Below, piece by piece: positions 1-58,923 of a stretch of DNA of 64,000 nt; the first letter of the stretch is position 1, and each line of letters starts with the position of its first letter. The stretch covers positions 6,014,001-6,078,000 of the forward strand of contig OZ059900.1 of assembly GCA_964057225.1 (NCBI GenBank), written 5' to 3'. The notes under the pieces were generated by a model. That model was not told the DNA's origin. It did no database searches and worked only from the letters and a program-made list of their open reading frames with translations. Origin of the DNA: Auanema rhodensis. Its lineage: Eukaryota; Animalia; Nematoda. Made by a program: the position numbers and the translations under genes.

Positions 1-1003
1 AACTTCTATCAAGTTTTTTCTGAAATTCTCTGAAGTTGATATCGTATTTTAGAATTGAGTTTTCAGAGATATTTCGAGGTTCAAGTAAGGATAGAGATTT
101 ATAGAGAGAGAGATTTTGTTTTTATAAATTTCTTGGGGAGGATTTGAACCAATGAAAGTTTTCAACTAACCTGGAACACATCAACTACACTAAGATGTTA
201 TATTCTTCAATCCATTAATATCAGATATATTTCTATTCAAAAATCCAATAATACATGAGCAAACTATGAAGTAAACTGACAAACGTTCAGAAAATTTTTC
301 AGTTTATTTTCAAAATGGCTTGTTTTTGTATTCAAACATTTCAAATTTAATCATGTAATGAAGAGAAAAAATAATATCCAAACTTTCAAATTTTATTTTG
401 AAAGTATACACTGTATGGGTCTGAAGTCATCGATTTCAAAGTCTGTTCCCACCAAACTCACTGAAACAAATGAACTACACAAATATGTTATGCACACTGT
501 GTCCCATAAAGTAAATATGAAGTAAACAATGAACAATTATATTTTAGTTTCTTTTCGTCATAAATATTACAATAATTTTAGAATTTATTTTTGTCATTCA
601 ATTTTGATTATTTAGCCTTTTATCAGACGAAAAAGTGAAAAACAGTCGTACTTCTTGGAATTTATAATGATGTTCATATCTTTCATATTCTTGAATCAGA
701 TCAGTTTGTTTTTGAGAAATAATTCAAAAAATAACAGAACATTTATCTTCAAAAATTGTAAATGGGATATACACAAAAAGAAAACATAGGAAAGACATAA
801 ACTACAAATCAGATAAATGTATCGTAAATTGGCAGACGCAAAAATACAGTTGGAAAAAAAATGGCACCATACAATAACTTTCTAATATCTTTTTCTGTAG
901 ATACATAGTAATCAATATAACATTTTACAGCTATCAACTAATCGATTTGGCTTTCTAATAATTTGTTCAATTAAGAATAAGTTTAAAAAGAGGAGGTAGT
1001 TTA
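1..1003. repeat. Direct repeat copy A (about 1 kb, runs off the window start); pairs with 5127-6149
   Basis: AACTTCTATCAAG at 1 matches 5127. The copies are colinear until GGAGGTAGTTTA at 1003/6149. Confidence 0.97.
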
Positions 1004-1232
1004 TTTTGACACATACCGTTTGAGATAAAAGTGTTTCTTTCGTTATTTTCTCAAGAAAAGAATGTACTGTGGAATATTCTGGTTGGAATTTCAATAACTA
1101 TTGTAATAGAAAAACTTTACAAAAACTTAAAACATGAAAATATAAAAATCTTACAGTATTCATTGAAAACAAGTTTAAGTTAGTAAACTCATTTACATTG
1201 TTCATACGAATTTATCTTTAAGTGATAGTTTT

Positions 1233-1382
1233 TTAAGTCCTAGCTAGTTTGTGTAGAGTGTAAGCATCTTGTTCATTCAGGAACTCTTTGGCCTCTTTGA
1301 TAGGCTTCTTTGTTATTCTTGATAACGCAATGATACTACAAAATCCTGTTTTAGGAGAATAATAAGCTTTTTCTAAAAGATC
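1233..1382 (-). pseudogene. N-terminal fragment of a Maverick/Polinton retroviral-like (c-)integrase
   Basis: The -1 frame relative to the zinc-ribbon ORF reads DLLEKAYYSPKTGFCSIIALSRITKKPIKEAKEFLNEQDAYTLHKLART*. This fits the Maverick integrase N-terminal signature L..+YY.P...F....L......+..+L..Q.AYTLHK..R. No DDE core is recognisable after the stop. Confidence 0.75.
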
Positions 1383-1615
1383 TCTTTCAGATGCACTTGT
1401 GGATTGTCTAAGAATTTTAGATTTTTCACTAATACAACCTCCTCGATATCTTCTAATCCAGAACCTCCTGTGATTGTTGGAATAAGCTTACACTTCATTG
1501 TATTACAATCTTGGCATAACCCTTTTATTATAGAACGTTTCGAGCTTGTTTCAACATTAAATAAGTCAGTAGTATCAGTATATGTTTCACATTTGAAACA
1601 GTATACTAATTCCAT
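1373..1615 (-). CDS. Small zinc-ribbon protein, DUF5679-like (Maverick/Polinton-associated type)
   Basis: 80-aa ORF MELVYCFKCETYTDT...TSSKRSIIKGLCQDCNTMKCKLI then a Gly linker. Two CxxC pairs in the YCxKC...R..+KG.C..C...K pattern. TTCTAG acceptor-like site lies 3 nt before the ATG. Confidence 0.65.
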   Translation of the reverse strand: MELVYCFKCETYTDTTDLFNVETSSKRSIIKGLCQDCNTMKCKLIPTITGGSGLEDIEEVVLVKNLKFLDNPQVHLKEIF

Positions 1616-2118
1616 AATCTAGAAGTTAAAATTTAAAATTTTTTTTTAATCTTATTTGATTTTGTGAAATAGGGGACGTTGTGTGAAAATGGATGTCTTC
1701 ACTAGAAAATGAATTCACTTCCATCTAGCCATGACCCGCAAACATAGCTACCTCACCTGAATAATTGACTTTCTACACTTGACATCAATGAAATAAGATA
1801 TTTGTTTCGGGCGAGACGCAAACACTTTGTGCTAGAGTGGAAGGGGATAAGAGTGACGCGTGAGCAAAGATGCAGAGAAGGAGAGAGACTGCCAACTCAA
1901 ATTCTTCTATTAACTTTTGTGAATAAAAGAGAGGCTTCAATTTTCTTCTATATAGTTCGCGTGTTCTTTCCAATTTTATTATATTTTGAAACAGCGTTTA
2001 ATTGTAGATGTTATGCTTTATATGTTTTAACAATTTTTTGTTATGGATTAGACTTGCTACGAGATTTTGATTTTTATATTGACGAATATTATTTAACGAT
2101 ATATTGTTTCAGAAAAAA

Positions 2119-3434
2119 ATGGCTAAAGTAGATTTGTCTCGGCTTTGGTATCAATTTCTAGACGCTGCAAAGTGTGGGACTGAAGAAGGAGGAAATCTTA
2201 TTTATAAAGTTGGTTTATGCAAGGTTGCCTTAAACCTGTCGAACAAATTAATTGAATGTGGGTATGATTTCGGAGACCAATATGATTTATGGAAGGAACA
2301 CTTTGACAAAGTTTTTTTTTTTTTGGAAGGCGATGATGATATGATTCAGAGTATGTACTTGCCTATGTTTTCTAAGTTAGAATAATTTTTACAGGAACTG
2401 TGCGTGAATACTTCTTGGGCCTGCATTCTGGAGAAATAACGGATTTCTCGATATACTTTGCATGTAATATAATGTTTATATTGATATAAATACTATTTGT
2501 TTTTAAATTTTTTAACAAACATTATTTTTCAATTTATCTTTTCTTAAGCTATAAAATTGTAATAAAATTCGTTTTTAGATAAAACCGAAGGGACATCAGT
2601 TGGCACTATATGTAACGTCATGGTTTCTGGAATCAGTCGGCGATTCTACATTAAATGCCACCAGAGAAACCCACGTTCTACATCAGTATCGATTGCAAAT
2701 CGACACAACAGCGCAAATGGCCCATTCGTTCAAGAAATTTTTGTATACCAGGTATTCTATTGAAATAATTGAACAAAATTAACATTTTATTTTATTATAT
2801 TATAATATTTGTTTTAATTTATATTTTTAGTTGCTGTCGTTGATCAAAGTCGGCGGTGAAGTTCATTTTCCCCTCCCAATAACCTTCAAAGCCAAGAACG
2901 CTTTATACATTGCAACGGAAGAGATCAACTTCACAATTGCAGAAGAACTGACGGCTGAAACCCTTAATTTCAACGTCATAATTCTGGTGAACTTTCTTGA
3001 ATACTTCCTGCGTTTGGAAGACATCGGTAGAAACGAAAGAAATTACGGACAAAGTGATGAAGGAGAAGCAGTTATTGTAGATTTTTGGTAATTTTTGTTT
3101 TGTTTTAAGTTCTAAATGGAACCTGTTTTATTCCAGGATTACTCTGAAGGACAATTACGAGCTTTCCGATAGCCAAATTTCTGAATTTTGGAGTGAGCTG
3201 TATGAAACTAAATCTGAACAGATCCCTCATGTTTTGAAGATAGTAACCAAAGAGGAAAGAAAGGAAATAATTTATGGAGCGATTGAGAAATGGAATTTAA
3301 TGAATGCAATTGAACAAGCCAAATCAATTGTAGAGGAATTTCTTTTTAAAAATAGAGAAAGATTAGAAACCAGTGGTGATCTCAGTCGATACGTTCGCGA
3401 TGTTAAATCCAATGTAGAGAAATTGCTTAAGTAA
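2119..3434 (+). CDS. Atypical (PI3K/PI4K/HipA-like fold) kinase-like protein, 342 aa, 5 exons; possible Maverick cargo kinase
   Basis: Exons 2119-2350, 2395-2463, 2579-2751, 2831-3087 and 3137-3434 join through GT-AG introns into one 1029-nt frame. Motifs in kinase order: KTEGTSVG, FYIKCH, QEIFVYQLL, LYIATE, LEDIGRNERNYG, IVDF. TTTCAG lies just upstream of the ATG. Confidence 0.8.
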
Positions 3435-3572
3435 TTTGTTTGTATATCGTTTGTTTGTATAAATGTTACTTATTTGATTAGTTTGTTTGTTTTGTTTTGA
3501 CGTATTTTATCTTGTTATTCCAATTAATGGGGAACCAGTAATTATTCCTTTTGAAAAAACTTGGATCCGTGA

Positions 3573-3779
3573 CAGATCCGCTAAAATATTTCTGAAAAAC
3601 TCAACAGTTAAGGAGATATAGCGTTTCAAAGTCAAGGTTTTGACTTTATATCTCCTCTTTAGGAGGCTATAACTTCTATACTAGACCAGATAGGATATTA
3701 AGATTTGGTGAGATGAAAGAGTTCATCTTCCACAATTTGCCCATTCAATCATAAATGAAAAATATTAATTTTTAACTGA
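3573..3779. repeat. 207-bp direct repeat, copy 1 (copy 2 at 4649-4855)
   Basis: CAGATCCGCTAAAATATTTCTG...AACTGA occurs twice with only a few substitutions. Confidence 0.95.
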
Positions 3780-3783
3780 TTTT

Positions 3784-4368
3784 AATTTTAGTTATCAGAA
3801 TCGTTTTCTACGTGTCTGTTTTACTTGGTCAACTTAGTTTCAAATCATTTTGTTCGAATTTTCAATTTTCGATCAAATGGTCGAAATCCATGTACTACCC
3901 CCTTACCTACTTTTTCATCAAAGTTGACCATCATCACATGAAATTTTAAGATTTTCACAAGTTTTTTGTTGATTTCCAATTTGAAACAACTTCTAACTTG
4001 AGAGATTTGTAATGAAAGCAGTTCTCCACGAGAATCGGAATAATCACAAGTTTTAGGTTAACAAGATTTGTTGAGCATCTGAATGATTGTTAGATGAGAC
4101 AATCATTTCTTGAACTTTCAAAGTATATTCATTAATTCTTTTCTAATATCTTTAATTCTTATTTTTATAAAATATAATTAAAGAAAAAAACTTAAGAAAA
4201 TCTTAAAATTTCATGTGATGATGGTCAACTTTGATGAAAAAGTAGGTAAGGGGGTAGTACATGGATTTGGACCATTTGATCGAAAATTGAAAATTCGAAC
4301 AAAATGATTTGAAACTAAGTTGACCAAGTAAAACAGACACGTAGAAAACGATTCTGCTAACTAAAATT
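3784..4368. mobile_element. Foldback/MITE-like inverted repeat: arms 3784-3956 and 4196-4368 (173 bp), 239-bp spacer
   Basis: The arms are near-perfect reverse complements, e.g. CATGTACTACCCCCTTACCTACTTTTTCATC and GATGAAAAAGTAGGTAAGGGGGTAGTACATG. No coding capacity. Element class not assignable. Confidence 0.8.
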
Positions 4369-4648
4369 TCCTCAAATGCCGTCTGAAGGTAGATATGGCC
4401 TTCTGAATGGAAAACATCAAAACATAAAAAGTCTCATAACTCCTTTCAAAGTGAGAATGGAGTTATTTGCTTGTTATATTTGAAATCAGCATTTTAAGCT
4501 CTACCAGAAACTTCTCTCAATTTTTAAAAAACTCGAAATTTTTATTTCTCAAACCGGAAATTGGCCGAATTTTCTATTTTCCAAAATTTCAAACTACTCC
4601 AATCTTCAATGTAGGTAGCTTTTCTAAGAGATCTTTTCACGTAGAGTT

Positions 4649-4855
4649 CAGATCCGCTAAAATATTTCTGAAAAACTCAACAGTTAAGGAGATATAGCGT
4701 TTCAAAGTCAAGGTTTTGACTTTATATCTCCTCTTTAGGAGGCTATAACTTCTATACTAGACCAGATAGGATATTAAAATTTGGTGAGATGAAAGAATTC
4801 ATCTTCCACAATTTGCCCATTCAATCAAAAATGAAAAATATTAATTTCTAACTGA
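4649..4855. repeat. 207-bp direct repeat, copy 2
   Basis: Matches 3573-3779. Confidence 0.95.
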
Positions 4856-5126
4856 GCTACGAAGCGGAAAACTTCGAAAAAGAAGATTTTTTACAGTCCA
4901 AATCCATTCGACCGTTTTTTGGATTCTCGATTAGATATTGATTTTCTTAAAAAACAGAGAAAGGTATTGAACTCCGTTACCTAACCTGTAATCCATGCAG
5001 TACACCTTTAGGCCATCCTGCTCATAGTAGTGTATATCATTTCCTGTAGATGAATAGGGAATAATGTTTGTTGTAAACTTAAAAAGTTGAATATTTCAGA
5101 AAGTTTTTGAGAATTTCTTTTTAGTA

Positions 5127-6149
5127 AACTTCTATCAAGTTTTTGCTGAAATTTTCTGAAGTTGATATCGTATCTTAGAATTGAGTTTTCAGAGATATTT
5201 CAAGATTCAAGTAAGGATAGAGATTTATAGAGAGGAAGAGAGAGAGAGAGAGAGAGATTTTTTGTTTTTATAAATTTCTTGGGGAGGATTTGAACCAATG
5301 AAAGTTTTCAACTAACCTGGAACTCATCAACTACACCAAGATGTTATATTCTTCAATCTATTAATATCAGATATATTTTCAAAAATTCAATAATACATGA
5401 GCAAACTATGAAACAAACTGACAAATGTTTAGAAAAGTTGTCAGTTTATTTTCAAAATGGCTTGTTTTTGTATTCAAACATTTCAAATTTAATCATGTAA
5501 TGAAGAAAAAAAATATTATCCAAACTTTCAAATATTATTTAATTTCAAAGTATACACTGTATGAGTCTGAAGTCATCGATTTCAAAGTCTGTTCCCACCA
5601 AACTCACTGAAACAAATGAACTACACAAATATGTTATGCACACTGTGTCCCATAAAGTAAATATGAAGTAAACAATGAACAATTATATTTTAGTTTCTTT
5701 TCGTCATAAATATTACAATAATTTTAGAATTTATTTTTGTCATTGAATTTTGATTATTTAGCCTTTTATCAGACGAAAAAGTGAAAAACAGTCGTACTTC
5801 TTGGAATTTATAATGATGTTCATATCTTTCATATTCTTGAATGAGATCAGTTTGTTTTTGAGAAATAATTCAAAAAATAACAGAACATTTATCTTCAAAA
5901 ATTGTAAATGGGATATACACAAAAAGAAAACATAGGAAAGACATAAACTACAAATCAGATAAATGTATCGTAAATTGGCAGACGCAAAAATACAGTTGGA
6001 AAAAAAATGGCACCATACAATAACTTTCTAATATCTTTTTCTGTAGATACATAGTAATCAATATAACATTTTACAGCTATCAACTAATCGATTTGGCTTT
6101 CTAATAATTTGTTCAATTAAGAATAAGTTTAAAAAGAGGAGGTAGTTTA
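5127..6149. repeat. Direct repeat copy B of 1-1003; ends about 200 bp from the atg-11 stop codon
   Basis: Direct alignment by eye. The (GA)n tract is longer in this copy. Confidence 0.97.
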
Positions 6150-6353
6150 GAAACGAATCATCTTCAATGACAGTCATTATTGACACTAAAATCAGGCAAG
6201 AATTGTTGCAAACACTAGATAAGGAACTGATGTGATATGAAATTTAAAATATAATAATAGTTAACATACACTTCTAGAACATACATATAGTATTTGCATT
6301 TGTCATAAATATGAGAAATATAGTATTAATAACATTTACATCAAACTATTGCA

Positions 6354-9300
6354 TCATGTGTCCACTCTTGCAGTGGATTGACCTCTGACATCCAATAAAA
6401 CAGAAGAAACATCTACGCGATATACCCGAGTATCGAGAGCAAGATTATACCTTGAGTATTATAAAAACAACGTAAATAATATCAAAATCATTGAACTAAC
6501 CTATTATTCACTTTCTTGATAACACACAAATCAAGGCTATTGACACGTCCAAGGAACCATGTTCTAACTGGACCATTCGGTGACATAAGATTCATACGTC
6601 GTAAACTGGACTCTTTCACAAAATGAAGATAGGGTGATGAGCTGAACAAGAGGAAAGCTTGATAGCGCTCATCATAAACAATAAGAACAGTAGCTCCTTC
6701 CGAAATATCATGCAAAGATATCATCATTTCCATAGAACGAAAGTCTTCAAAGAGTAAAGTAAGTACGTTACTTATATATATATTTATATTAAAACTCACT
6801 TAGTTTTGTCTGTGTTGTTTTATCTCCATTGTCTAAAGCTTCATTAGAACAGGTAATTTTACTAAAATGAACTAAAATGAGAAGACCTTAAAAGTAGTAA
6901 CAATACCTTTGTTGCATGAAATCGGAATCCCTTTTTTCATACATTACAGATTTACCCATGACACTTTCAGAATTACCAAGAAACAGCACTAAAAATAAAA
7001 ATATATGTAAATTTGAATGAGCATCAACTTTACTAGAAGTGCTGATTGATGCTTCACGTGTCAGTTTTGCTCGAGAATCAGTGATATTTTGGAGTTGCTG
7101 ATTTTCTTCTTGATTATTCATTGTTGAAGTAAACATATTCAACTCGAGCGTTTTTGCTTCCAACAACTTTTTCAATTCAGCAATTTCTTCGCTTTGTTTC
7201 TAGAAACAAAAATTTAGTTCACATTCATCACTTTTTAAGCATCATACAGCAATGATGTTTTTTAACTCAGCTGTATTAGCAACAACATCAGCATTTCCGT
7301 TCTCATCCTCTGGCTCAATGATTTTTTTCTGAAAAGGGAGAAAATAAGCCATGACTTTGGATTATATATCTCGGAGTACCTTGGTTTCATTTCTTTCTTG
7401 TTGAACGCGATAGTTTTTTGAAATCTCCACGATACTTTCAATGTCCGAAAGTATGGTAGATGTATTATTTTTAAAATCTGTTTTCAAATCATTTAGTTCC
7501 TTTGTGAGATCATTAACTTCTATTTTGAAATTAGATAGTGTTTCCCTCGGGATATTGGAGAAATAAAGAGAGCTTTGACTTTCCTGATTCTGAAATGAGA
7601 TATAAAATAAGACCAAATATCTTATCAGACCTTGAAAACTGGATTGAATCCTACAGAGCATTTCGGATCAGATAAAGACAAACGATTTGCAAAATGAGAA
7701 CAGACAGATGATACATCAAAGGTTTCCTAGAAAATCCAAAACAATTTTAATATACGCTGAAATCTTCATACCCTGCTCGAAGCTTTAGAAGTTGTTGGAG
7801 TATCAGGAACTGTTTGCAAAGCTCGATCGTTAAGACATTCGATTCTGAAAATCAAAACGATAAAACTTGAGAGAAAATCGGAAAACTTACTGTTGAATAA
7901 CTTTTTGAACTGTTTCTGTTACTTCAACATTCACTTGCCCTTTGATTGATTCGCAATCTTCACTCAATATTTCCAGATAATTTTCATCCAATGGCGGCAT
8001 TTCGGTATCAAATTGAGCAACATTGTTTTGATAAAACTCGGGAAAGGAATCAGTTAGACCTTCAAACTATTCATATTTTTTTAATTGAATACAAAATACC
8101 TCTAAACAAAACTCTAAGAAAATGATTATTCATTGTTTTAGCAAAATCATCTCGTCGCTGTTTCTCTTCTTCAAAGAGCTTATCACAGAGCTTGATATAC
8201 GATGTTTGCCATTCAACAAAATGCCGTCGTAGCACGTTTCGACGAACAATTTCAGTAACTCCAGAAACAAAGATATTCGGCACTGCCTGAAGTCGGGAAA
8301 CTAGATATGTAATAACGTAGAACTGGAGTATACTTCTATTTTATCAATTAAATCCATTCGTTTGTCTAATCCTTCATATCTCTCATTGAATAATGTCATT
8401 TCATTGTTGGCTCGATTCAATCGATCATATGCCTTAACAAACGCCTTGATACAGATATTAAGAATGAAACATACTGTTATAATCCATCCATGTATGCGTG
8501 CATTAATATTGGCTATTAACTCTTCTTTTGATTTTCTGAATGTTATACAATATTCTTTTAATTTTCGCAAATCTTGGAAAATAGAGTCAGTTGTTCTCAT
8601 GTAGTCGTCCACTTTAGCCTGAATAGAAAACTCAGATACTGTATAGAATAATAATACATACATGAATCATATTCGTATCGCTGATTGGAGGCGCAGGCGA
8701 TGTCATATATTGTATATTTTGCTTTATTCTATCCAATATTTCTAAATCATCAAACTTTTTATTATGAAAGATTTATTGATCAGGGTACCTGATGCTTTAA
8801 CTTGGTTTTGTTTTAAGTTTTGCATACGCCTGGTGATTCCACAGATGTCACGTAAATCTCGATTTTTTGTTTGATCATCAACAAAATTAATTTTATCCAG
8901 TACCGGCTTGTCACCCGAATCTTTCATCTGAAACTTTGATAATGAAAAACAAAAGCTTAATGGAACTAAACATACAGTGCCATACTGATCCAATAACTGC
9001 TGAATTAAATCTTCCAAACAATTATTTGGGTCTGACATATCAAGCCAATCATAGAGGCTTAATGATTTTAAGCCAGCTGTAGTACGCATTCCTTTAGAAT
9101 GAGCAAGAAGTTTAGCCGGCAATATAATCTAAGCTACGAATTTGTGAAAATGAAAAAATTAGTATCATTACTTGTTTCAGAATATTCAAGCAATCAGAAT
9201 AACATTTTCCCAACCTATGAGCTTTGCTCAATTGAAGGTCTAACTGAAAAATTAAACAATCAATAAATAGAGTGATTTGAGTCCTACTGAATCATATTTT

Positions 9301-10158
9301 TTTTTGAAATTCCTATATTTCTTCTTCGTCAAGTTCAATGTATTCTCGATGTTACACATAATTGCTTGCCAACTCTTCAAAATTTAATAAATAGATACCT
9401 TGCTATCTTGAAAACAAAAATACCATTGTTAATAACGTATGATCGTTAACTAATTGATTACACCAATCATATATCAGAACTGCAGTTTTGCCGCAATGAT
9501 CAAGAGTAATATTTGGCAAATCCGTGAAGATCTCATTGATATTACCTGTATTTTTTATCCGCATCGTCTATCAAATATAATTAAGAACTACTAGTTCAGC
9601 ATATTAGTTACCTTTTCAATAGCAGCATCAACAGTGTCAGCAATTTCTTTCAAATCGCCCTTATACATCATTTCAGCGTTATTATCTCGACGTCTCTGCT
9701 CATAAATGAAAAATGGACTTTTATCTGCTCCTGAAGTTAAAAAATTTTTTATTTACATGATTATTATTAAGATAAAAGTCACCTCCATGATTAGCATAGT
9801 CTTGCAACTTTTTGTCAAATTCAACTAAAACTCCATCATTTAACATCCATATCTGTTAGAAATAAAGAGTTTGAAGTTTTTCAAAAATAAATTTACCTGA
9901 TCTTTAATAGCTATGCGAACTTCTCGCTCTATCTTTTCCTGCACACTTCCCAATGTTTGTAGAGTTCCCTAGAATAAGAGATCAATATTTTTGAATACTT
10001 GTTATTTTAGTTAATTTTAATGAAATTATGAATTTATAATATTTTTAAAAGAGTTTTTTCATACGCTTGTAATATCAGAAAACAACGATAACTCAACATA
10101 CTATTTCAAATGTGAGCAGATGGCCCTTATTCACATAAAACACTTTAATTTGCTCCAT
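6354..10158 (-). CDS. atg-11: ATG11/RB1CC1 (FIP200) autophagy scaffold, multi-exon
   Basis: N-terminus MEQIKVFYVNKGHLLTFEI/GTLQTLGSVQEKIEREVRIAIKDQ resembles the FIP200 ubiquitin-like start. Coiled-coil middle. C-terminal Claw domain ISLHDISEGATVLIVYDERY...YLHFVKESSL...WFLGRV...KKVNNRYNLALDTRVYRV. C. elegans synonym epg-7. Confidence 0.92.
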
Positions 10159-53319: not shown

Positions 53320-55837
53320 ATGCCAACTGGAACGTTCTACGTTATTCTGCCGTTGGTCTGTCAAACGCTTTTTGGAAAGCCAGACCCAGATCCGGAAATT
53401 CCACCTTGGAATAATGCTGTTTTCAAGGTTTTCACTTAAATTGCTACAATGCCTTAGGAAAAGATGAGAAAAAGACAATGTAAAATAAGTGGAAATAGAC
53501 GAGGATGACGAAGATGAAGCTATTATGAAGAGGTGAGTAAAGAGTCGGACAACATGTTTTCTTACTCTTGTTCGTTATTGCATACAATTCCCTTTCGATG
53601 ATAGTTTCAATAAACTTATTTTCGATTTGCTTCGGTTTTCAAATTTTATTTCAGCTCTGAAACAATTCCTCACACATTCAAAAGTTTAATTTTCTAATCT
53701 ATCATCCGAACGATCATGCATTTGAACTATTTATTCTCATATTTTCTTCTATTGTTTTCAAAAACAGAAAATAATCAACAGACTAAATAGTTTGCTCAAG
53801 AGATTCGGTAAAAATATATCAGCTGAAGCTGGATTGTGCAAATATTGGCGACATTTGAACTCAATTAAACGCCCATTGCTCTTATATTAGCTTAATTTTC
53901 ATCACTCGGATATTTTCATCAAATTTCAGTAGCATCAATTAGTCTCTGCTTGTCCTACCGATACGGTTTACTTCAACTTCTCCGTCATGAATTTAATTCA
54001 GCTAACATTAGTTGCAATCATCCATCAAATTCATGCTCAAAATTCAATTGTATGTTTAGAAATGTATCATTTCAGTTGATTCATTAATATGTTTTTCAGT
54101 ATTTTAATAAAAATTTACCTGATCATGAAACTACTTTAACCGATTACGATTTTCTAATGGCCAGAACACACAGCTATCCATCCTTTGATGAGCCAGCTAA
54201 TATGACAGCAATGTATAATCCTAAACGTTTTGAAGGAGATATAGGTAAATGCTGCATATCTCAGAAATTAAGATTTTTTCTTGAAGACAATGTTGCGTAT
54301 ATCGCCTTCGGTTCATAACTTGTTTTCAGTTTATACGGCAGGAACATTTAATGCTTTGCGAAATTATAATCCAGGAATGAGGTTTAATACCGTGGTAGGT
54401 GTTCAGAGAAATGCTGTTAAGCAAGCTTACCTTAAATGGACTGATGGTCGTATTCCATATACAATTAGTTCTCAATATTCCTCTTTCAGGTAAATAAACA
54501 ATTTTTTTGATTAATATCGTATATTTTCAGTCGCGCTAAAATTGCTGAAGCACTTGAAGAATATAAGAAAAAGACTTGTGTCTATTTTTCACCAAAAAGT
54601 GCTGCTGATCAAGATTATATTCATATTGTTCCGGATGATGGATGTTACTCCCTAGTTGGAAGAGTTGGTAATTCATATTTTATCATTGAATATTATGAAA
54701 ACTTCTTCTTTTTAGGTGGAAAACAGCCTGTAAGTTTAGGTGATGGATGCATTCAGAAGGGTATCATCTTACACGAATTGATGCATGCTGTTGGATTTTT
54801 CCATGAGCAGAGTATGTTGCATTGCATTAACTATTAGTGTAGTTTGATTTATGTGATAGGTCGTGCTGATCGTGATGAGTATGTTGTTATCAATTGGAAT
54901 AACGTTGAGCCTGGATTACAAGATCAGTTTGATAAATATTCGCTGAGCATGATAGATCATCTTGGAACAAAATATGATTATGAGTCTGTCATGCATTATG
55001 CTCCAACCGCATTCAGTAAAGTAATATAACTTATATTATATTTATAAATAGAATAATTTTATCATATAATTCCTAAAATATTTTATTTTCTTATAACATT
55101 CCTAAACATTTGTTATATCCAATTTATTTGTTTTTTATTTTATGTTTTAAGAATGGTAAACCAACTATCGAGCCTAAACAAGCTAACATCGAGATCGGAC
55201 AACGCCTAGGATTTAGTGCTAACGACTTATACAAGATCAACAAGCTGTACAACTGTTCCAGTAAGTTTGCCGGAGCGAAACAAGCTTTCGCATCATAATC
55301 TTGTATGTAATCCAAACTAAAATGTTTTGTTTTAGATATTGAAGAAATCGAAACAGTAACATCATTATCAAAAGCAGCCAAAAAGCCTTTATCATCGCGA
55401 AAAGCCGGAACTGGATCATCTATTCGAAAAGAAATCGAAGAAGCTAATACGAAAGAGATTCCAAATGAAGAACAATGTGCCGATAGGTAATCGTAAAGTT
55501 ATTTACAGATCAATCAACCATAAACATTTTAGACGTCGCGATTGTGAGTTTTTAGCTCGTGCTGGACATTGTGAATCAAAATTCAGTAAAAAATTCATGA
55601 CAGAGAATTGTCCCAAAAGTTGTAAAAAATGTGAAACAGAATCTGAATCTGAAAAAGAGGAAGATATCTCAAAACCGGAAAAGTGTGAAGATGCCAGGTA
55701 CTAAATAATAGTTTCAAAATATATTTATGAATTGCAGGTCATGGTGCGAAAAATGGGCAAACAGTGGGATGTGTACACAATCCCTATTTAAACCATATAT
55801 GTCGAAAAAGTGCGCCAAGAGTTGTCAATTATGTTAA
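53320..55837 (+). CDS. nas-13: Astacin zinc metalloprotease with two C-terminal ShK domains
   Basis: FEGDI pro-domain; HELMHAVGFFHEQSRADRD zinc motif; SVMHY Met-turn. ShK domains CADRRRDCEFLARAGHCESKF...CPKSCKKC and CEDARSWCEKWANSGMC...CAKSCQLC. The 5' exon structure is less certain. Confidence 0.9.
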
Positions 55838-57514: not shown

Positions 57515-58923
57515 ATGGATAAAAACGAAGAATATGAACAACATGTGAAAAGGATACGTGTATTATCAATAGCAGGTATGAATATTCTTCTACACATTTG
57601 TGTTTTCAAAATATTTGGTACATTCTCTTGCATTCTTAGGTGTATCTGTTTCATTGGCTACTGCTTTGTTATGTATTGTCATTGGGCCATTAGCATATTA
57701 TCATATACAACATATGAATAGTCTTATTCAACATGAACTTGACTATTGTAAGGTAAAGTCATTGTTGTTATTCTCACTTATTCTTGTCTTACCAACTAAT
57801 ATTTTGATTTTCTTATTTCAGCATCGTACAGATTCTGTATGGAAGCAAATCACTGAGAAACAGCAGCATTCTGATCCTGAGGTCCGTTTTGTTGTACTTT
57901 ATCCTTTTAATGTTTTTTCTGGTTAATTGCAGAGAATTCGAAAGCGTAATGCTTATGATGGCTATAGAGCTAGTTATGGTAGTTATGGGGCTCAACGTTT
58001 ACAAGAATACGTAGCACCTGGAATGAAAGCTAGCGGAATTTATATTCAAGCAGTTCAACAAAGTAGGGTTACAAAGTTTAAAAAAAAACGATTCTGAAAA
58101 GTTTGTAATGAAAACAGAATTACCATGAAATTTTAGCTTGTGGTTGTGGAATTGGAGCTCCTGGCGAGCCTGGGCAACCCGGACTCAATGGCAAAGATGG
58201 CCATGACGGTGCTCCTGGACGCAATGGATCCAATGGAAAAGATGGACGTGTAATTGAAAAGCAGCCCGTTCAAGCTTGCTACGAATGTCCAGTGGCCCCA
58301 CCAGGTATTCTTATACATTGAATAGATCATACAGTGTTGGATAAAACATCTTTGTTTTCTAAATTGCAGGAGTCCCCGGTGAGCCAGGAGTGCAGGGGCC
58401 ACCTGGACCACCAGGCTATCCAGGAAGACCCGCTGTTCCAGGAGCACGTGGAAAACCAGGACCACCCGGCCCAGAAGGCGCAAAAGTTGAAGGGTTTAAT
58501 AATTTATGATTTGACAAAATTATTTCAGGGACAACCTGGAAGAGATGGTACCGTTGGTAGACCAGGAGAACCAGGACGCGTGTTGATGAAGGTTGGACCA
58601 CCGGGCGAACCAGGAACTCCAGGCATTCAAACTCAAAACAAAAAAAACTAAACTCTAAAATTACAGGAGCTGCTGGACTACCTGGAAAACAAGGATCTCC
58701 TGGAGCATACGGAGCACCAGGCATTCCAGGTTTTCAATTTTTTTCATTTTCGGACAACAAGTTTTTTATTAATTTAGGTCCACCAGGAGTAAAAGGATCT
58801 CCAGGACAAATTGGTGTCATGGGACGTCGCGGTTTAGCTGGTGAACCTGGAAAGACCGGTGAAGTTGGAGTACAAGGAGACTGCTCACATTGTCCACTAC
58901 CACGTACCGGACAAGGCTACTAA
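57515..58923 (+). CDS. Nematode cuticle collagen
   Basis: N-terminal TM/Col_cuticle_N ([42 protein letters not shown]); RIRKR furin site; CGC; interrupted Gly-X-Y repeats; CYEC; terminal [15 protein letters not shown]. Confidence 0.97.

Follow-up and report, generated by a model that had tools for sequence, protein, structure and literature searches.

The gene at positions 2119 to 3434 of the window, by which we mean the whole 64,000-nucleotide stretch of Auanema rhodensis DNA analyzed here, looks like an intact kinase gene standing beside the relic of a Maverick transposon, and this raises the question of whether the kinase came with the transposon, whether the host has kept it, and whether it might be part of a selfish module. 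We consider it probable that the gene encodes a spliced nematode kinase of the MavQ/CtkA/HipA type, one that is related to the KRMA kinases, lacks their ubiquitin-like (Ubl) domain, and was likely the cargo of a Maverick whose integrase is now broken. The association of such kinases with Mavericks has already been published, as the accessible part of Widen et al. (10.1101/2022.07.12.499685) sets out; a copy that is intact and expressed next to a dead integrase offers a workable place to ask what a cargo kinase does and whether its host retains it.

The gene is real, spliced, and transcribed. Its five exons lie on the forward strand and encode 342 amino acids with no internal stop, separated by GT..AG introns of 44, 115, 79, and 49 nucleotides. 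Exon 1 (2119..2350) carries residues 1 to 77, exon 2 (2395..2463) is bounded by the GT..AG joints 2350>2395 and 2463>2579 seen in RNA-type contigs, exon 3 (2579..2751) holds the Gly loop (G105/G109), the beta3 lysine (K126), and the alphaC glutamate (E153), exon 4 (2831..3087) holds the catalytic D222 with N226 and N229 and the metal-binding D242, and exon 5 (3137..3434) encodes the helical C-lobe and the stop. An initial annotation of this DNA had described an uninterrupted five-exon kinase-like gene with these motifs, and this description holds: the protein aligns without gaps to relatives of 342 and 343 residues at 60 to 61% identity, and the named residues fall on the conserved columns of the family. 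An alternative model in which exon 1 was shorter, giving 296 residues, was dropped because the 342-residue model fits both the relatives and the RNA.

The transcript evidence comes from a comparison of the window with 8 of 20 listed sequencing runs. The RNA type of runs was a guess; three of the four runs so guessed gave spliced contigs, all from one study. These contigs skip the introns exactly (four of four in X11 and in X14, three of four in X12) with at most one mismatch to the window copy, and DNA contigs retain the introns. The RNA-type kinase contigs start at 2106 to 2112, at a TTTCAG acceptor (2107..2112, forward strand) 6 nucleotides before the kinase ATG. Judging from the sequence and these contig starts, the acceptor is a likely trans-splice site.

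Pfam gave no match below E 0.03 for three full-length relatives, and sequence searches of the PDB matched no kinase; the fold was approached through a proxy, the relative P0002 (61% identical and gap-free to the window protein), and a 77-row alignment. The P0002 model has a pLDDT of 92 and a pTM of 0.91. In a wide structural search, its residues ~79 to 343 found MavQ first (Z 11.2, rmsd 3.5, 212 residues aligned), then CotH (Z 10.8), actin-fragmin kinase (10.6), S. oneidensis HipA (10.1), CtkA (10.0), and PI4K II (9.6). The entries compared were 7m7a (MavQ, from Legionella), 3akj (CtkA, from H. pylori), 4pu3 (HipA), 5jda (CotH), 1cja (actin-fragmin kinase), and 4pla (PI4K II); the fold is alike throughout, at Z 9.6 to 11.2, although sequence identity is 8 to 13%. 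Foldseek with the same model returned generic kinases, and the ESM Atlas returned bacterial clusters without names, the nearest named ones being HipA_2 and PI3_PI4 kinase. The window protein has K126, E153, D222, N229, and D242, as do 71 to 74 of the 77 aligned relatives. On this modeling the window protein is a predicted MavQ/CtkA/HipA-type kinase, and a check of the kinase fold through a 61%-identical relative favors the reading of the initial annotation. Among the neighbors, lipid kinases score level with protein kinases, and CotH and actin-fragmin kinase score level with HipA and CtkA; no particular substrate follows from the fold. Residues 1 to 69 of P0002 are modeled as a three-helix bundle with only generic structural matches, and the same bundle is predicted for the N terminus encoded by exon 1. 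A likeness of residues 1 to 70 to MIT domains (Z 7 to 8.5) is not claimed, as unrelated bundles of helices score just as high (up to Z 9.9).

On the reverse strand, at 1233..1615, lies the 5' end of a Maverick integrase pseudogene, made up of a DUF5679 zinc ribbon (1615 to ~1434; Pfam E 3e-8) followed by ~65 codons in another frame (~1433 to 1239). The initial annotation had treated these as a zinc-ribbon ORF and a separate integrase remnant. Its divergent ORF about 500 bp away is there, with an ATG at 1615 that is 503 bp from the kinase ATG, but the two parts are not two genes. With the 55-residue "remnant" frame as the query, 2 proteins were found among 11 candidates, a DUF5679 protein of C. 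angaria (P0173) and a protein in which DUF5679 is fused to an rve integrase core (P0174). P0173 is matched end to end, over 1615 to 1409 at 80% identity and then over 1433 to 1239 at 80% in the second frame. Because P0173 spans both frames and P0174 joins DUF5679 to the rve core, the zinc ribbon is the integrase N terminus, and by these alignments the two parts together make up ~127 codons at the start of one integrase. The window's copy resembles the nematode Maverick integrases with N-terminal DUF5679 at ~80% identity to P0173 over both frames, but it is frameshifted near 1434 and cut off at ~1239, before the rve core. Integrase copies in X6, X16, and X18 continue past this cut (loose ends at 1238 to 1242). 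No RNA-type contig covers the window's integrase fragment, which is not evidence of silence. DUF5679 is frequent in coral polintoviruses, according to the accessible part of PMC11131425.

Some further observations concern this fragment. Exact contigs at 1148 to 1367 and 1534 to 1736 have about twice the kinase depth in X2 and X6, so the truncated integrase junction likely has an identical counterpart outside this locus, for which the duplication extending beyond the window's edge is one possible site. P0173 and P0067, the latter a Ubl-plus-kinase protein of C. angaria, are each assigned to a contig of 13,323,656 bases. Two scans of viral contigs with the integrase frames gave six and three weak loci, which we attribute to chance; the six are presumably phage primase-helicases, judged by eye, and the three are short frames, also by eye.

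The closest named relatives of the window protein all come from nematodes of several genera (10 of 10). Without gaps it aligns to Acrobeloides nanus sequences at 61% and to those of Caenorhabditis sp. 36 at 60% identity; C. briggsae, C. remanei, C. auriculariae, and Auanema proteins are 47 to 67% identical to it. At a threshold of E 0.001 a profile search collected 339 representatives, of which 150 were listed, and a Pfam scan of 73 representatives gave a ubiquitin match in seven, one of them above the curated cutoff. The profile search also reached, at E 2.5e-14, a cluster of Ubl-plus-kinase proteins of 430 to 434 residues from C. angaria, C. bovis, and C. sp. 36; P0002 aligns to its 430-residue member P0169 from residue 73 to the end at 24% identity. 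This cluster is probably of the KRMA-1 type: in the available text of Widen et al. (10.1101/2022.07.12.499685), Cwal-KRMA-1 has 430 residues, a ubiquitin-like fold at residues 1 to 73, whose end coincides with the start of that alignment, and MavQ, CtkA, and S. oneidensis HipA as structural neighbors.

As far as that text describes them, KRMA kinases are like the window kinase in these top neighbors, in their kept catalytic residues, in bearing introns, and in adjoining a Maverick integrase, and the window family's core is homologous along its entire length to the 430-residue proteins. In contrast to KRMA, the window protein has 342 residues instead of 430, lacks the N-terminal Ubl, with RNA-type contigs beginning at 2106 to 2112, and falls in a separate clade (100/100). 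A Ubl profile built from 19 long relatives matched 32 of 173 collected proteins, 19 of which were its own rows, and it matched none in the window's clade and none of the window's frames (best E 0.36). Because the Ubl is absent, we class the window kinase as a KRMA variant. The link to KRMA drawn in the initial annotation, which could not be confirmed by eye there, is borne out at the level of a KRMA-related atypical kinase, by fold neighbors and by homology to the Ubl-plus-kinase cluster. The 532-protein KRMA set of Widen et al. may already include this shorter Ubl-less clade, and the accessible part of Jeong et al. (10.1101/2023.08.22.554363) makes no mention of a kinase or of cargo.

Trees were built from 116 rows with FastTree (126 passed the coverage filter and 10 near-duplicates were dropped) and from 40 hand-picked rows with IQ-TREE. 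The window protein belongs to a nematode clade of ten rows, all lacking a Ubl (100/100), and the Ubl-bearing proteins form a separate clade (100/98); the union of both with one Ditylenchus protein has 85/83 and is unstarred in IQ-TREE. There is no resolution of the branching inside the ten-row clade. An independent origin of the Ubl-less clade from non-nematode relatives is a weakly indicated possibility: it appears at 0.49 in FastTree and is absent from the IQ-TREE result, in which the groups rich in nematodes unite with 85/83 (unstarred).

The layout of the locus resembles that of Maverick cargo. The kinase stands head to head with the integrase 5' end across a spacer of 503 bp (1616..2118), well inside 6 kb from a Maverick core gene, and the Maverick association proposed at the outset is sustained to this extent. 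In the part of Widen et al. available to us, cargo lies next to the 5' end of the integrase and its own 3' end faces outward; the kinase has this position and orientation, and it has introns. No TIR or further Maverick core gene was recognized in the scanned frames, including no TIR past 3535. Two other organisms, D (run X16) and E (run X18), from two other studies, share the integrase start at 89 to 94% DNA identity, the spacer, and the kinase at 88 to 93% over 2323 to 3504 or 3535, 287 intron bases included. The Maverick-derived DNA common to both extends approximately over 1238..3535 (from ~1238 to 3504 in X16 and to 3535 in X18), and the right flank at 3542 to 3700 is absent from both. It is likely that the spacer is Maverick-derived and that one or more promoters lie inside it. 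The higher GC content described for cargo relative to core genes is not seen here: the kinase gene with its introns has 33.4% and the integrase fragment 32.9%, a comparison between two sequences that have both decayed in an AT-rich host.

The surrounding DNA is duplicated and rich in repeats, as first described. A segment at the left edge (1..1003), which runs off the window, is 95% identical to 5127..6149, just downstream of a host atg-11-like gene. Between them, a high-copy block (3573..4855) consists of 207-nucleotide direct repeats (3573-3779/4649-4855) around 184-nucleotide inverted arms (3784-3967/4185-4368); its sequence is MITE-like, and its repeats are at most candidate Maverick ends. 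Depth at 3542 to 3700 is 700 to 1360 in X2 and X6 and 0 in X16 and X18. Rfam found nothing on 1 to 7000. A short exon-like frame at 4931-5095 on the reverse strand, without a Pfam match, presumably resembles the end of a LIM domain (by eye) and may be a fragment of a gene left of the window. The window as a whole is AT-rich with short introns, and its host genes include an atg-11/epg-7-like gene at ~6360 to 9750 on the reverse strand (Pfam ATG11 at 6491 to 6799, with ATG17-like matches) and two ordinary genes on the forward strand, one for an astacin protease with a ShK domain at 54511 to 55704 and a cuticle-collagen-like one at 58322 to 58923.

Could the kinase instead be an old, vertically inherited host gene beside which a Maverick fragment landed by chance? 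Relatives do occur in several nematode genera, and AU tests do not reject Caenorhabditis monophyly (p 0.34 and 0.39) and Caenorhabditis plus Auanema (p 0.33). Against this, the DNA that D and E have in common with the window takes in the kinase, the spacer, and the integrase start and leaves out the flank at 3542 to 3700, the spacer between integrase and kinase is itself conserved in D and E, and the relatives are patchy, with protein identities that ignore kinship (90.5% between C. briggsae and C. auriculariae against 46 to 49% between C. briggsae and C. remanei). We regard chance adjacency as improbable. Nor do we see much room for the kinase as the toxin of a toxin-antidote element with its antidote elsewhere or outside the window, to which we assign only a very slight probability. 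There is a precedent in msft-1/tlpr-1 of C. briggsae, in which, by the accessible account of Widen et al., a MULE captured the WASP/WOSP protease that acts as the toxin and the antidote was co-opted. That system is like the window locus in that a Maverick cargo gene was left in the host after its vehicle decayed, and it differs in being a protease where we have a kinase; no antidote or second transposon is recognized here. The same source reports that disruption of the Ubl of MSFT-1 leads to a higher dose and toxicity, and the window protein lacks a Ubl; its fold, too, is common to HipA and bacterial effectors. Yet the small divergent ORF that the initial annotation had put forward as partner or antidote is the integrase's own N terminus, which removes the proposed partner gene. 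No other gene was recognized in 3435 to 6240, and no function or toxin role for any KRMA kinase was found in the literature searched. The suggestion of a selfish role is thus unsupported, with no linked antidote found in the window.

A harder choice arises within the Maverick origin itself. The window kinase could simply be the copy that has decayed least in a cargo family on its way to extinction, its transcription owed to a remaining promoter. It would then be of no benefit to the host and under no selection since insertion, with a Maverick origin as in our preferred explanation; we give this absence of selection an even chance. Coding changes private to the window copy number at least 18 (from 40 of 329 rows) and divide into 12 non-synonymous and 6 synonymous, which does not differ from the neutral site ratio of 3.8 (p 0.15, or 0.35 with transition bias). 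A neutral copy at 2 to 5% divergence would keep its splice sites and acquire no stops with a chance of 0.29 to 0.05. Exon 1 also contains a run of 13 T (2311-2323), coding for three Phe where relatives have other residues, and one of the six covering runs, the RNA-type X11, has one base more, a frameshifted length; the other five match the window, and the extra base may be homopolymer error or slippage. On the other side stands the contrast in small indels that set the window copy apart, with four in 1233 to 2118 and a 1029-bp coding sequence free of them (p 0.046, tested post hoc on 12 of 46 rows), along with the retention of all catalytic residues. Among columns that are otherwise invariant, the window protein deviates at 8 of 64, which lies inside the relatives' range of 1 of 57 to 16 of 72, and part of its divergence may predate insertion.

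The state of other copies in the same organism also speaks against an absence of selection. In X2 and X6, exact kinase contigs have depths of 48 to 56 and variant contigs ~97 to 120, although depth reflects copy number only approximately. These variant contigs carry the joints 2165>3188 and 2667>3071, which recur in X9, and a one-base insertion in exon 5, and in X2 and X6 the exon 4 segment 2830 to 3007 is covered at 80% identity or more by the exact contig only. From the joints and the coverage, it is likely that the sister copies lack the catalytic exon. Taken as a whole, the sequence comparisons point weakly to selective retention (p 0.05 to 0.35), and we put retention of the kinase by host selection at somewhat below an even chance. 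The initial claim that the gene was kept intact while the transposon decayed draws some weak support from the indel contrast (p ~0.05), and none of significance from the ratio of non-synonymous to synonymous changes.

Returning to the reading of a Maverick cargo kinase, we infer that it would have inserted with the element, its 5' end facing the integrase, and would carry its own promoter and trans-splice site, so that it could still be transcribed after the vehicle lost its integrase core. The enzyme would phosphorylate a host protein or a phosphoinositide, and the three-helix N-terminal module may set its target or place. One contig each from D and E matches the window up to 2116, then has ~205 unalignable bases, and matches again from 2323; the unalignable stretch is of the same length as the window's and lies exactly over the codons of residues 1 to 68, the helical bundle. 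Since these residues are unalignable while the kinase domain is at ~90% DNA identity, we propose a swappable targeting module. Such a swap is possible and would resemble the N-terminal modularity reported for KRMA and WASP in the available part of Widen et al. (10.1101/2022.07.12.499685).

The sharing with D and E fits the spread of cargo and suggests transfer, although, depending on how closely D and E are related to the host, ~90% identity may also be vertical. What bears on transfer is the 88 to 93% DNA identity with D and E and the 90.5% protein identity already noted, beside AU p values of 0.33 to 0.39. Runs X10 and X15 have a smaller share of the window's words (0.39 and 0.23). A fuller account would have a Ubl-less KRMA branch moving between nematode lineages on Mavericks with a swappable N-terminal module and, in addition, one copy here kept by the host, spliced, and expressed once the transposon was dead and the sister copies were damaged, a case of domestication in progress; we offer this conjunction tentatively, as a doubtful possibility. 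The Ubl-less form also provides a test of the idea, drawn from MSFT-1, that the Ubl limits cargo dose.

Beyond nematodes the family is sparse in our samples. The origin of 20 representatives was nematode in nine, the protist Syssomonas in one, and metagenomic in ten. Metagenome contigs of 1.2 to 4.2 kb yielded distant intronless relatives, confirmed for 11 of 149 candidates, with no Maverick gene seen on them by eye; P0002 as a query gave no match among metagenome contigs. These relatives (L010-L020) are close-knit, Ubl-less, and on short contigs, and one of them (L018) lies next to what we take by eye to be actin-like frames. Together with the Syssomonas protein, they extend the family to non-nematode eukaryotes. 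Three scans of viral contigs with distant family members found no relative and BFVD gave generic kinases only, so that an ancestral Polinton-virus origin of the kinase gained no support. Within nematodes, C. briggsae CBG12680 (P0004/P0009), annotated as kinesin-like, combines a kinase of the window's family with a piece of kinesin, probably through the merging of two gene models.
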